The position numbers were made by a program, and so were the translations under genes. The notes beneath the pieces were generated by a model that searched no databases, was not told the origin of the DNA, and was given only the letters and a program-made list of their open reading frames with translations. From Escherichia coli (GTDB taxonomy: Bacteria; Pseudomonadota; Gammaproteobacteria; Enterobacterales; Enterobacteriaceae): a stretch of DNA of 64,000 nt. This document shows, piece by piece, positions 45,863 to 53,472 of the stretch. The DNA is taken from assembly GCF_016903815.1 (NCBI RefSeq), contig NZ_CP069973.1; one strand, written 5' to 3'. Numbering within the stretch: the first letter of the stretch is position 1; every line of letters starts with the position of its first letter.

Positions 45863-46843
45863 ATGGCTTTTACACCTTTTCCTCCCCGTCAGCCTACGGC
45901 TTCTGCCCGTTTACCGCTGACACTGATGACGCTTGATGACTGGGCGCTTGCCACCATTACTGGCGCGGACAGCGAAAAATATATGCAGGGTCAGGTGACA
46001 GCAGACGTCAGCCAGATGACAGAAGATCAGCACCTGCTGGCCGCCCATTGCGACGCCAAAGGTAAAATGTGGAGCAATTTACGTCTGTTCCGCGACGGCG
46101 ATGGCTTTGCGTGGATTGAACGGCGCAGCGTGCGTGAACCGCAGCTGACTGAACTGAAAAAATATGCGGTATTCTCTAAAGTGACCATCGCGCCAGACGA
46201 CGAGCGTGTGCTGCTTGGTGTTGCCGGTTTTCAGGCGCGCGCCGCGCTGGCAAACCTCTTTAGTGTATTACCTTCGAAGGAAAAGCAGGTTATCAGAGAA
46301 GATGCGACTACCCTGCTATGGTTTGAACACCCGGCAGAACGTTTCCTGATCGTAACCGATGAAGCTACTGCCAATATGCTGACCGATAAACTGCGCGGTG
46401 AAGCGGAACTGAACAATAGCCAACAGTGGCTGGCATTAAACATTGAAGCGGGTTTCCCGGTGATTGATGCCGCCAACAGCGGGCAGTTTATTCCACAGGC
46501 GACCAATCTCCAGGCGCTGGGCGGTATCAGCTTTAAGAAAGGCTGCTATACCGGACAAGAGATGGTGGCGCGAGCAAAATTCCGTGGTGCCAACAAACGC
46601 GCGCTCTGGTTGCTGACAGGTAGTGCCAGCCGACTGCCGGAAGCTGGTGAAGATTTAGAGCTGAAAATGGGCGAGAACTGGCGTCGCACCGGTACGGTGC
46701 TGGCTGCGGTAAAACTGGAAGATGGTCAGGTCGTGGTACAGGTCGTCATGAATAACGATATGGAACCGGACAGCATCTTCCGCGTGCGTGACGATGCGAA
46801 TACACTGCATATCGAGCCGCTGCCGTATTCGCTCGAAGAGTAA
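45863..46843 (+). CDS. ygfZ: tRNA-modifying / folate-binding protein YgfZ
   Basis: 326-aa [52 protein letters not shown]. Confidence 0.9.
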
Positions 46844-46849
46844 ATCTCT

Positions 46850-46910
46850 GTATCGCATCAGGCATTTATCGCCTGATGCGACGCTGACGCGTCTTATCAT
46901 GCCTACAAAG
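46850..46910. repeat. REP (repetitive extragenic palindromic) element
   Basis: gcatcaggcatttatcgcctgatgcgacgctgacgcgtcttatcatgcctacaaaggcat contains the REP core GCCTGATGCGACGCT...GCGTCTTATCA.GCCTACA, between the convergent ygfZ and yqfA. Confidence 0.75.
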
Positions 46911-46919
46911 GCATACCCA

Positions 46920-47582
<663 letters not shown>

Positions 47583-48071: not shown

Positions 48072-49532
<1,461 letters not shown>

Positions 49533-49588
49533 GTCGATGAAGTACCGGATGCAATACTTGTTGCATCCGGTCAGACAACTTCCCTGTT

Positions 49589-50332
49589 TTATTTCCCGCC
49601 CGCCAAATCGATAAAACTTCCCGTGACGTAAGAGGCTTTATCACTTAGTAGCCAGACAATGGCCTGCGCGACCTCTTCTGCCTGTCCACCACGCTGCATG
49701 GGGATGTTCGACTTAACGCGATCGACGCGTCCAGGCTCGCCGCCGCTGGCGTGCATTTCGGTATAAATAAACCCTGGCCGCACGCAGTTAACGCGGATCC
49801 CCTGCGCGGCGACTTCCAGCGATAGTCCGGTGGTTAACGTATCAATCGCCCCTTTCGATGCCGCGTAATCAACATATTCCCCTGGCGAACCCAACCGTGA
49901 GGCCACCGAAGAGACATTGACGATAGCGCCGCCACTGCCACCATTTTTAAGCGCCATGCGTTTTACCGCCTCGCGGCAGCAGAGAAAATATCCCGTCACG
50001 TTGGTGGAAAGTACTCGGTTGATTCGCTCTGCGGTAAGGTTTTCAACGGTGCACTGGGTAAACAAGATCCCGGCGTTATTGACCAGCGCTGCTAGCGGTT
50101 CATCGTGCTGATCGATTGCTGTAAACATCGCAACGACCTGGTTTTCGTCGCTGATATCCGCTTGGAGCACGAATGCTTTGCCACCGGCTTGCGTTATTAA
50201 GTTCATCACTTCCTGCGCCGCGTGGAGGTTTTGCTGATAATTAACCGCCACCGTATACCCTTCTTGCGCCAACAGTAATGCAGTTGCCCGCCCGATGCCG
50301 CGACTGCCACCAGTCACAAGTGCTATAGCCAT
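49589..50332 (-). CDS. ygfF: Short-chain dehydrogenase/reductase YgfF
   Basis: 247-aa ORF; MAIALVTGGSRGIGRATALLLAQEGYTVAVNY is an SDR Rossmann motif. Confidence 0.85.
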   Translation of the reverse strand: MAIALVTGGSRGIGRATALLLAQEGYTVAVNYQQNLHAAQEVMNLITQAGGKAFVLQADISDENQVVAMFTAIDQHDEPLAALVNNAGILFTQCTVENLTAERINRVLSTNVTGYFLCCREAVKRMALKNGGSGGAIVNVSSVASRLGSPGEYVDYAASKGAIDTLTTGLSLEVAAQGIRVNCVRPGFIYTEMHASGGEPGRVDRVKSNIPMQRGGQAEEVAQAIVWLLSDKASYVTGSFIDLAGGK

Positions 50333-50409
50333 TTGTTTTTCCGAGAAAAATTAATTCGTTGACGTATCTTTGAGATTGCTAACAAACTGGCTCAATCTTC
50401 AATGTTGGC

Positions 50410-50520
50410 ACGCTTTTCCCCCTCGCCCTTTCAGGGAGAGGGCCGTGGTGAGGGTAAATATTCGCGCCAGTGCCGGCCTGTTCCCCTCACCCTAACCCTC
50501 TCCCCAAAGGGGCGAGGGGA
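50410..50520. repeat. Pair of inverted GC-rich palindromic repeat units (CCCTCGCC...GGTGAGGG / CCCTCACC...GGCGAGGGG)
   Basis: ccctcgccctttcagggagagggccgtggtgaggg and ccctcaccctaaccctctccccaaaggggcgagggg are near reverse complements of each other, in the ygfF-gcvP intergenic region. Confidence 0.7.
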
Positions 50521-50554
50521 CTGTCTGAGCACTTTTGTACTTTGTCATCTGACT

Positions 50555-50580
50555 AAAAAGGCGCCGAAGCGCCTTTAGAA
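50555..50580 (-). terminator. Rho-independent terminator of gcvP
   Basis: Hairpin ggcgccgaagcgcc preceded on the + strand by an A-run, which is a T-run on the minus-strand transcript, about 20 nt 3' of the gcvP stop. Confidence 0.65.
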
Positions 50581-50598
50581 AATAGTCGAATCAGTGAA

Positions 50599-53472
50599 TT
50601 ACTGGTATTCGCTAATCGGTACGCAGGAGCAGAACAGGTTACGGTCGCCGTAAACATCATCCAGACGTTTCACTGTCGGCCAGTATTTGTCTGCCACACC
50701 TGCCGGGAATACCGCAACTTCACGGCTGTACGGATGCGCCCACTCGGCGACCAGTTCGCTCTGAATGTGCGGCGCGTTCACCAGCGGGTTATCTTCCAGC
50801 GGCCAGACACCGGCTTTCACCTGGTCAATTTCTGCGCGGATAGCCAGCATCGCGTCGATAAAGCGATCCAGTTCCACTTTGCTTTCAGATTCAGTCGGTT
50901 CAACCATCAGCGTACCCGCCACCGGGAACGACATCGTCGGCGCGTGGAAACCGTAGTCGATCAGGCGCTTGGCAATATCCAGCTCGCTGATGCCGGTTTC
51001 TTCTTTCAGCGGGCGAATATCGAGAATACATTCGTGCGCCACGCGACCGTCGCGACCGGTATACAGCACCGGGAAGGCATCCTGCAGGCGGCTGGCAATA
51101 TAGTTGGCGCTGAGGATTGCCACCTGGCTTGCTTTTTTCAGCCCTTCTGCGCCCATCATGCGGATGTACATCCAGCTGATTGGCAGGATAGAGGCGCTAC
51201 CGAACGGTGCCGCAGAAACCGCGCCCTGACGGGTTAACATGCCTTCGATGTGCACCACGCTATGACCCGGTACAAACGGTGCCAAATGCGCTTTCACGCC
51301 GATCGGTCCCATACCCGGACCACCACCGCCGTGCGGAATGCAGAAAGTTTTATGTAGGTTAAGGTGTGAAACGTCCGCACCAATAAAGCCCGGCGAGGTG
51401 ATGCCAACCTGGGCGTTCATGTTCGCGCCATCAAGGTAAACCTGACCGCCGAACTGATGCACGACTTCACACACTTCACGGATCGTTTCTTCATACACGC
51501 CGTGGGTAGAAGGATAAGTCACCATGATACAGGAGAGGTTATCGCCCGCCTGTTCCGCTTTCGCGCGCAGATCAGTCAGATCGATGTTGCCGTTTTTATC
51601 ACACGCCACAACCACCACCTGCATTCCTGCCATATGTGCAGAAGCGGGGTTAGTTCCGTGCGCAGAAGCCGGGATCAGGCAGATATCGCGATGCCCTTCG
51701 TTGCGGCTTTCATGATAATGACGAATCGCCAGCAGGCCCGCGTATTCGCCCTGTGCGCCAGAGTTCGGCTGCATACAAACGGCGTCGTAACCGGTCAGTT
51801 TCACCAGCCAGTCAGCCAGCTGCGCAATCATCTGCTGATAACCTTCGGCCTGCTCCGGCGGGCAGAACGGGTGCAGTTCGGCAAATTCCGGCCAGGTGAT
51901 TGGGATCATCTCGGCGGCGGCGTTCAGTTTCATGGTGCAGGAACCCAGCGGGATCATCGCCTGATTCAGCGCCAGATCTTTACGCTCCAGCGAGTGCATA
52001 TAGCGCATCATTTCGGTTTCGCTGTGGTAGCGATTAAACACCGGATGGGTGAGGATTTCGTCGTCGCGCAGCATCGCAGGTTGAATAGAGCGGCTGTCGT
52101 GAGCCACGTCTTTGTCCAGCGTGTCGATGTCCAGGCCGTGGTTATCCCCCAGCAGTACGCTGAAAAGCTGCATCACGTTTTCGCGCGTGGTGGTTTCATC
52201 AAGGGTGATCCCAACCGCGTTCAGGATATCGCTACGCAGGTTGATTTCAGCCGCTTCGGCACGCGTCAGTACGCCCGCCTTGTCGGCCACTTCCACACAC
52301 AGAGTGTCGAAATAGTGCGCATGGCGCAGCTTCAGACCTTTTTGTTGCAGGCCTGCCGCCAGGATATCGGTCAGACGGTGAATGCGGTTAGCGATACGTT
52401 TCAGGCCAACCGGGCCGTGATAAACGGCATACAGGCTGGCGATGTTTGCCAGCAGTACCTGGGAAGTACAAATGTTGGAGTTCGCTTTCTCACGACGAAT
52501 ATGTTGCTCGCGAGTCTGCATCGCCATGCGCAGAGCGGTGTTGCCAGCTGCATCTTTCGATACACCGATAATACGGCCCGGCATTGAGCGTTTGTATTCA
52601 TCTTTCGCCGCAAAGAATGCCGCGTGTGGGCCACCGTAGCCCATCGGCACGCCGAAGCGTTGCGCCGAACCAAAAACAATATCCGCGCCCTGTTTACCCG
52701 GCGCAGTTAACAGCACCAGCGCCATAATATCGGCGGCAACGCTGACCACAATTTTGCGTGATTTCAGTTCGCTAATAAGCGCAGTGTAGTCGTGAATTTC
52801 ACCGGTAGTGCCTACCTGCTGTAACAGCACGCCGAAGACGTCCTGATGGTCGAGCACTTTTTGCGCGTCATCGACAATCACTTCAAAACCAAAGGTTTCG
52901 GCACGAGTACGGACCACATCCAGCGTTTGCGGATGCACATCGGAAGCCACGAAGAAGCGGTTGGCATTTTTCAGTTTGCTGACGCGTTTCGCCATCGCCA
53001 TTGCTTCGGCGGCAGCGGTGGCCTCGTCCAGAAGAGAAGCAGAGGCCATATCCAGTCCAGTCAAATCCAGCGTTACCTGCTGGAAGTTGAGCAGTGCTTC
53101 AAGGCGGCCCTGGGAGACTTCAGGTTGATACGGAGTGTACGCGGTATACCAGCCCGGATTTTCCAGCATGTTACGCAGGATAACCGGCGGTAGCTGCACG
53201 GCGGTGTAACCCATGCCGATGTAAGACGTGAAGCGTTTATTGCGACTGGCAATAGCCTTGAGTTCTGCCAGTGCGGCGTATTCGGTCGCCGGTGCGCCAA
53301 CCTGCGGTGGTGTCGCAAGCTGAATATCTTTCGGCACAATCTGGCCGGTCAGCGCGTTTAACGATTGTGCACCAACGGCATTCAGCATTTCTTGCTGTTG
53401 CGCGGCGTCCGGTCCGATATGGCGTTCAATAAAAGCGCCGCTGTTTTCAAGCTGGCTTAACGTCTGTGTCAT
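50599..53472 (-). CDS. gcvP: Glycine dehydrogenase (decarboxylating), glycine cleavage system P protein
   Basis: 957-aa [55 protein letters not shown]. Confidence 0.94.

Follow-up and report, generated by a model that had tools for sequence, protein, structure and literature searches.

An inverted pair of BoxC repeats in the ygfF-gcvP spacer of Escherichia coli

Small repeats of the BoxC family have been known since 1992 and have received several names. According to Holder et al. (2015; PMC4666352), the motif that they call TM_ECO was earlier described as BoxC (Bergler 1992), with the fabI (envM) locus as the site of the first description, and was rediscovered as PIT elements (Hoyne et al. 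2000); the family also appears as BoxC in Bachellier et al. (1999) and as PIT in Hoyne and Maher (2002). In the work of Kaplan et al. (2016; PMC5100583), the family reappears as putative G-quadruplexes (HPGQ), and in Petrillo-type surveys BoxC is listed with a length of 50-56 bp and 22-32 copies (PMC2267715). Table 1 of Holder et al. contains 23 TM_ECO motifs in MG1655, and these authors reported the motif in more than 260 genomes and observed no bias in its position relative to genes (PMC4666352). Oligonucleotides of type A, type B, "A mm" and "B mm" formed stable intrastrand triplexes with Tm values of 70-82 °C and with CD and NMR imino signatures; no triplex was formed by the duplex, and in vivo DMS footprinting at copy no. 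3, a different copy from those studied here, revealed no protection, so that the triplex was undetected there (PMC4666352). Earlier work, in the account given by Holder et al., recorded polymerase arrest in vitro and no promoter, terminator or replication effect in vivo. The same authors found TM loci to be more variable between strains than control intergenic regions, and noted partial deletions leaving a hairpin at paired TM sites (PMC4666352). From CD data, Kaplan et al. proposed a switch between G-quadruplex and hairpin while remaining explicitly non-committal on function (PMC5100583).

Several other elements resemble this family in form or in name. REP/BIME (PU) sequences are likewise small, GC-rich, imperfectly palindromic, intergenic, multi-copy enterobacterial repeats that often occur as inverted pairs, but their sequences are unrelated to those of BoxC. 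REPs have a RAYT transposase partner and documented mRNA-stabilising and protein-binding roles, whereas we know of no transposase partner, mRNA-stabilising role or protein-binding role for BoxC. The boxC of lambda nut and rrn antitermination shares only the name, being an unrelated RNA element of boxA-boxB-boxC sites. H-DNA, triplex and G-quadruplex instability motifs share with BoxC a symmetry of purine and pyrimidine blocks that allows a third strand, and they are linked to polymerase stalling in vitro and to local genomic variability. BoxC differs from them in that its triplex is intrastrand, requires single-stranded DNA and went undetected in vivo, and in that it constitutes a dispersed family with high sequence conservation, not a simple homopurine tract.

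An inverted type B and type A pair between ygfF and gcvP

The DNA analysed here, hereafter the window, is a stretch of 64,000 nt from E. coli (contig NZ_CP069973.1 of assembly GCF_016903815.1) that is collinear with K-12 MG1655 (window position + 2,995,569 = NC_000913.3 coordinate). Within it, ygfF, encoding an SDR-family oxidoreductase (247-aa ORF, 49589-50332, minus strand; ORF list, K-12 and PGAP annotation), and gcvP, the glycine decarboxylase gene that stands last in gcvTHP (957-aa ORF, 50599-53472, minus strand; ORF list, K-12 annotation), are separated by a spacer of 266 bp, which differs from its K-12 counterpart by a single base, T for G at 50446. An inverted-repeat search of this spacer returned two arms of 39 nt each (50419-50457 and 50481-50519) that are 79% complementary and have 23 nt between them. 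The original prediction, made from the letters of the window, had placed two near reverse-complementary units at 50410-50520; the inverted repeat is indeed present there, and the quoted strings, CCCTCGCC...GGTGAGGG and CCCTCACC...GGCGAGGGG, can be read directly in the window. The repeat is also more than chance would provide: the 9-mer CCCTCRCCC occurs three times in the 64-kb window, always at the repeat locus, against 0.81 occurrences expected from shuffles, and the 37-nt unit found no match in 100 shuffles.

The K-12 RefSeq annotation carries no feature in the ygfF-gcvP spacer, and the repeat was therefore identified through the literature, in which it is already known, down to the exact locus, from two published catalogues. 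Holder et al. list TM_ECO no. 10, type B mm, as CCCTCGCCCTTTCAGGGAGAGGGCCGGGGTGAGGGT at K-12 3,045,989-3,046,024 (plus strand) and TM_ECO no. 11, type A mm, as CCCTCGCCCCTTTGGGGAGAGGGTTAGGGTGAGGGG at K-12 3,046,087-3,046,052 (minus strand) (PMC4666352). These two entries fall on window positions 50420-50455 and 50518-50483, respectively, and the type A unit of the window is identical to no. 11. In the catalogue of Kaplan et al., HPGQ 32 (HPG2, midpoint 3,046,013, plus strand) and HPGQ 33 (HPG1, midpoint 3,046,063, minus strand), which correspond to our type B and type A units, lie between ygfF and gcvP (PMC5100583). The ygfF-gcvP repeat is an inverted BoxC pair, type B on the plus strand and type A on the minus strand; the reading that we adopt as a whole, in which this catalogued pair is a dispersed, non-coding repeat that plays no dedicated part in gcvP or ygfF expression, has in our estimate a probability of about 0.88. 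With the locus in two catalogues and the family known for decades, the identification carries little weight as a discovery.

The anatomy of the pair is readily described. The type B unit (50420-50455, plus strand) consists of CCCTCGCCC at 50420-50428, a TTTCA loop, GGGAGAGGG at 50434-50442, a CCG loop, the T at 50446 and GGTGAGGG at 50447-50454, whereas the type A unit (50483-50518) reads on the minus strand as CCCTCGCCCC, a TTT loop, GGGGAGAGGG, a TTA loop and GGGTGAGGGG. Each unit is a C-block followed by its complement and by a second G-block, and the two units are mutually inverted and 27 nt apart; the intervening 50456-50482 is made up of the type B 3' flank and the type A 3' flank (AACAGGCCGGCAC on the minus strand). 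Both units fit the three-block pattern of the family (CCCTCKCCC, loop, GGGAGAGGG, loop, GGGTGAGGG; 34-37 nt), the type B unit with one substitution, in that the T at 50446 (plus strand; G in K-12) takes the place of the G that begins block 3. The second loop assigns the unit at 50483-50518 on the minus strand to type A (TTA) and that at 50420-50455 on the plus strand to type B (CCG). Type B on the plus strand followed by type A on the minus strand is also the arrangement at the other four K-12 pair loci.

Using a regular expression on 18 K-12 intergenic loci, we re-extracted all 23 copies at their published coordinates, 15 of type A and 8 of type B. The three blocks, one of the two loop types (TTA or CCG) and the flanks are common to all of them, and the units of the window match them block for block; the pair between ygfF and gcvP is one of these dispersed, multi-copy, intergenic occurrences. 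The copy between fabI and ycjD (K-12 1,351,204-1,351,239), a type A unit, differs from the type A unit of the window only in loop 1 (TCT versus TTT). The likeness of our locus to BoxC/PIT/TM_ECO/HPGQ extends over the three blocks, the A (TTA) and B (CCG) loop types, the intergenic site, the inverted pairing of A with B and the conserved flanks, and the one difference from the catalogued sequence is the T for G at 50446. This T allele is rare, as an 80-nt query matched at 99% or more in 51 genomes, including ATCC 8739 (exact), versus 2,999 genomes in which at least 80% of the query was covered. Across about 5,400 E. coli genomes, the repeat was found by megablast at a median of 6-7 places per genome. 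The suspicion that the units belong to a small intergenic repeat family was thereby borne out, with 23 copies in K-12 and dispersal across E. coli genomes. The genome-wide search proposed at the time, for which a lack of additional copies had been named as refuting the idea, yielded those 23 copies, and among the catalogued small repeats suggested for comparison, boxC is the correct identity.

Other repeat families did not account for the spacer. With up to 2 or 3 substitutions allowed, 50333-50598 contained no consensus halves of a canonical REP (GCCKGATGCGRCG ... CGYCTTATCMGGCCTAC), while the same scan, as a positive control, recovered a true REP elsewhere in the window at 46871-46906. The central inverted-repeat core of ERIC (IRU), represented by the ERIC1R and ERIC2 primers, gave no match across the whole window with up to 4 substitutions allowed. 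The description of the units as "not a canonical REP" agrees with these scans, neither of which gave a match in the spacer. Rfam families gave best scores of 18.7-24.7 bits in 50000-51000 (E ≤ 1) against thresholds of 40-100, all from generic hairpin models such as miRNA precursors. The control REP (GCCTGATGCGACG ... CGTCTTATCATGCCTAC) is itself situated between two convergent ORFs, one of 326 aa (45863-46843, plus strand) and one of 219 aa (46920-47579, minus strand), whose counterparts in other strains are annotated as ygfZ and trhA, respectively.

Predicted folding and proposed local instability

A large stem-loop had been proposed for the two units, and the pair folds strongly when single-stranded (z of about -6 against shuffles). 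The suggested RNA fold prediction gave a long hairpin far stabler than shuffled controls: as RNA, the 136-nt repeat region reached -75.3 kcal/mol on the minus strand (z = -5.96) and -69.7 kcal/mol on the plus strand (z = -5.85), and none of 200 shuffles was equally stable. As DNA, the 110-nt core reached -33.2 and -35.6 kcal/mol (z of about -5.6 to -5.8), again with no shuffle equal to it. Single units alone were weak Watson-Crick hairpins (-7.7 to -9.6 kcal/mol; z, -1.5 to -1.9) in ViennaRNA, whose fold model covers Watson-Crick and wobble pairs only. The published triplex Tm values are 74 °C for "A mm" and 70 °C for "B mm" (PMC4666352), the type B unit of the window differing from the latter by the T at 50446.

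These properties allow a mechanism to be proposed. When single-stranded, the G-rich strand of a unit could adopt either a G-quadruplex or a hairpin on which the third block is placed to give an intrastrand triplex of the purine motif, and the inverted arrangement of the units would permit the whole segment of about 100 nt to form an imperfect hairpin or cruciform of about 40 bp when unwound or transcribed. The main effect would then be structure-prone behaviour during replication or repair, leading to slippage, small deletions and local rearrangement. We infer that instability at such a pair may arise in this manner, and the pair itself is probably a structure-prone but functionless repeat, whose main consequence would be occasional slippage or rearrangement.

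Three local facts fit this interpretation, namely a 6-bp deletion in the type A unit of one strain, the position of the only spacer SNP inside the type B unit, and a presence/absence segment of about 1 kb that ends at 50553-50555. In FDAARGOS_401 (locus L022), the type A unit has lost ACCCTA (window 50489-50494), which lies between direct CCCTC repeats. Most of the third block is missing as a result, and the deletion looks like replication slippage. Five spacer alleles sampled from ygfF-positive strains show about 99% identity, which indicates that any instability at the locus is modest. The proposal that the units might act as a recombination site has published correlative support in the raised variability around TM loci, and the 6-bp deletion allele and the nearby boundary of the 1-kb indel are in line with it. 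The association between motif and variability is correlative, and it could equally reflect preferential insertion or survival of the repeat in regions that were already variable.

A possible composite pair and the ygfF segment

The conserved sequence at the locus is wider than the motif itself. Fifteen K-12 type A copies were anchored without gaps at the motif boundaries, with distant-flank columns as the null, and 17 of the first 20 columns of the 5' flank exceeded the 95th percentile of this null; the 3' flank was conserved over about 10 nt (AACAgGCcGgC). At our locus, the family-conserved 5' flank of type A occupies 50519-50538 on the minus strand (consensus, CAAAAAcGgGCcCGGACGGTC; here, ACAAAAGTGCTCAGACAGTC), and in a subset of copies further similarity (GATGACAAAG) extends to about 50551. 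A longer type A 5' flank of about 35 nt, seen with MAFFT, was reduced to about 20 nt family-wide by the ungapped anchoring against the null. In type B copies, the shared flanking sequence comprises TTTTCT before the unit (5') and about 13 nt after it (3'); the T-rich 5' flank of our type B unit (50414-50419, plus strand) reads TTTTCC versus the family consensus TTTTCT, and a conserved T-rich stretch of 4 nt preceding HPG2 was described by Kaplan et al. (PMC5100583). From the conserved flanks of both types, the family-conserved sequence at the locus runs from about 50414 to about 50538. The extent originally given to the repeat was correct for its core but fell about 20 nt short of the conserved sequence on the right. 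With its conserved flanks, the type A unit measures about 66 nt, compared with the 36-41 nt of the published motifs and the 56 bp of BoxC.

Three K-12 pair loci, ygfF-gcvP (window 50375-50563), fepB-entC (locus L004, 1035-1222) and alx-sstT (locus L005, 1055-1244), can be aligned over the two units, the sequence that separates them and some of the outer flanking sequence, with a mean column identity of 77% when the shorter hrpB-mrcB pair is included. The 27-nt inter-unit spacer is conserved at fepB-entC and alx-sstT, as judged by the alignment and by flank information content, and the type B units of the three loci belong to a common subtype (loop TTCCA or TTTCA; 3' flank, TAAWTNTTCGCRCC) that is absent from single type B copies. 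This suggests that the BoxC pair behaves as one composite unit, a view that we did not find stated in the literature consulted on the family.

One possibility is that such a unit, about 130-150 bp long, was inserted as a whole and represents a composite non-autonomous mobile element resembling a MITE. The alignment of the three pair loci and their private type B subtype would be expected of such an element, as would the inverted-repeat-like overall shape and the other composite-length matches, at 85-91% identity, found elsewhere in E. coli records. However, no target-site duplication is visible at the ends and no transposase is known for the BoxC family. The repeat is also essentially chromosomal and nearly absent from genuine plasmids and phages, as we found it in a single phage fragment and in only 26 of 72,556 plasmid records, including several that are as large as chromosomes. 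Nor does the locus offer a clean empty site, since the repeat-less allele is a replacement of about 1 kb rather than a precise excision. We therefore regard insertion as a mobile element as unlikely. Equally doubtful in our view is the wider proposal that type B unit, spacer and type A unit spread together as one composite of about 130-150 bp, and that composites of this kind mark the limits of gene-sized presence/absence segments, the ygfF cassette among them, or contribute to the formation of such limits.

The segment in question was delimited by comparison of complete genomes. The whole ygfF-repeat-gcvP arrangement was present in 3,025 of 5,425 complete E. coli genomes, whereas about 2,400 (approximately 44%) matched only from window position 50553-50555 onward and lacked both ygfF and the repeat; the latter group includes O157:H7, ATCC 25922, ST131-type strains and strain 1303. 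In the ygfF-less allele, bglA lies directly beside gcvP, with a spacer of 165 bp (locus L019, 3882-4046; also L020 and L021) that contains a REP-like palindrome and the hairpin found next to gcvP. Together, ygfF and the BoxC pair make up a presence/absence segment of about 1 kb (window ~49527-50553), with one breakpoint in the last codons of bglA (window ~49527) and the other at 50553-50555, between the extended flank of the repeat and the gcvP hairpin; the end of the segment is about 15-35 nt from the repeat. A search for a precise empty site met only this replacement, and the similarity at its junction is limited to a GCACTTT heptamer, which is too short to interpret. The REP-like palindrome of the ygfF-less allele, GCCGATGTGCCTGATGCGCTACGCTCATCAGGCCTGGCAC, stands just after bglA (L019, 3884-3925, O157:H7 FRIK2455; the same in L020), and at the corresponding place the ygfF-positive allele carries a different hairpin, ACCGGATGCAA...TTGCATCCGGT (window ~49544-49570).

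With thousands of E. coli strains carrying both the pair and ygfF and thousands lacking both, the species provides a natural comparison that could be used to look for effects on neighbouring transcription or on rearrangement. What we add to the published record is small, consisting of the type A unit of about 66 nt, the apparently composite nature of the pair and the end of the ygfF segment near the repeat, and we consider the composite-unit observation and the nearby indel boundary to be minor leads.

Neighbouring genes and occurrence outside E. coli

The position of the pair raises the question of regulation of ygfF, as 87 nt separate the start codon of this gene from the type B unit. Located 87-187 nt upstream of that start codon, the repeat could form a promoter-proximal or 5'-UTR structure, such as a switch among G-quadruplex, hairpin and duplex, that tunes transcription initiation or translation. 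Oligonucleotides of the family show ion-dependent CD changes, and a regulatory role was suggested by Kaplan et al. (PMC5100583). Genomic SELEX located binding of RNA polymerase holoenzyme in the ygfF-gcvP spacer, with RpoD (PMC3946193) and with RpoN (PMC8743547), and such binding may have an effect on ygfF transcription. However, a consensus promoter scan of 50250-50700 found no sigma-70 site, and no sigma-54 pattern was found in the spacer within 2 substitutions. The family as a whole has copies at all distances from genes and in all orientations to them, with no functional theme, and the earlier work reported no promoter activity for these elements. Although ygfF and the pair are gained or lost jointly, this joint presence and absence is also expected from simple physical linkage. 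A role of the pair in regulating ygfF consequently appears improbable, and more so than insertion as a mobile element.

A candidate sigma-54 promoter was considered and set aside: the heptamer TGGCACG at 50406-50412 is similar to a -24 element, but it has no -12 partner, and the full -24/-12 pattern was unmatched within 2 substitutions. Two mechanical ORFs of 41 and 58 aa (50370-50495 and 50402-50578, plus strand) run through the repeat units, and both lack annotation in K-12 and in the PGAP-annotated genomes that we examined.

On the other side of the spacer, the pair could be a 3'-UTR stabiliser of the gcvTHP mRNA against 3' exonucleases, as some REP/BIME sequences are, or an extra terminator. 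It does lie downstream of gcvP on the same strand, and if transcribed it would form the very stable RNA hairpin of -75.3 kcal/mol given above. The obstacle is a terminator-type hairpin outside the repeat (50555-50578, minus strand), which consists of AAAGGCGC-TTCG-GCGCCUUU followed by U residues and has a predicted RNA fold of -17.7 kcal/mol (z = -3.65). It is situated between the gcvP stop codon (50599) and the repeat, 21-44 nt past the stop, and its sequence points to a function as the gcvTHP terminator. Transcription reaches this hairpin before the repeat, and most gcvP transcripts should therefore terminate ahead of the repeat. The consensus scan of 50250-50700 for promoters and terminators gave no match and missed this hairpin too, probably because its A-tract pairs with its U-tract. 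The hairpin is retained in ygfF-less strains, so that about 2,400 of 5,425 genomes without the repeat keep it beside gcvP. The family moreover has no positional bias relative to genes, and Hoyne and Maher (2002), as reported in Holder et al. (PMC4666352), detected neither promoter nor terminator activity in these elements. The suggested role in gcvP mRNA stability is accordingly unlikely, and a function of the pair as stabiliser or additional terminator for gcvTHP is, of the roles tied to a neighbouring gene, by far the harder to credit.

The idea that the inverted repeat is a chance product of a GC-rich spacer, for which nothing speaks except the low-complexity appearance of the G/C blocks, is already refuted by the shuffle controls and by copy number: K-12 alone has 23 near-identical copies, and matches across E. 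coli genomes number in the thousands.

With the dispersed BoxC pair as the preferred reading, the locus directs attention to what BoxC does and to the recurrence of the same 9-mer blocks in unrelated bacteria. When species-representative genomes were searched with the three-block pattern, at least 120 loci were obtained (L025-L144 among our loci), and the matches listed came from two MAGs, Archangium sp. JAEUJS01 and the unclassified GL140_5 JANYBJ01. The Archangium sp. MAG, a myxobacterial one, has at least 102 copies and the GL140_5 MAG at least 28, all with the same blocks (CCCTCKCCC, GGGAGAGGG and GGGTGAGGG), while their loops and flanks are unlike those of E. coli; the GC content of both MAGs is about 61-66%. 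The presence of motif copies in these two MAGs agrees with the more than 260 genomes of Holder et al. The GL140 MAG carries the motif inside two longer repeat variants, both well conserved.
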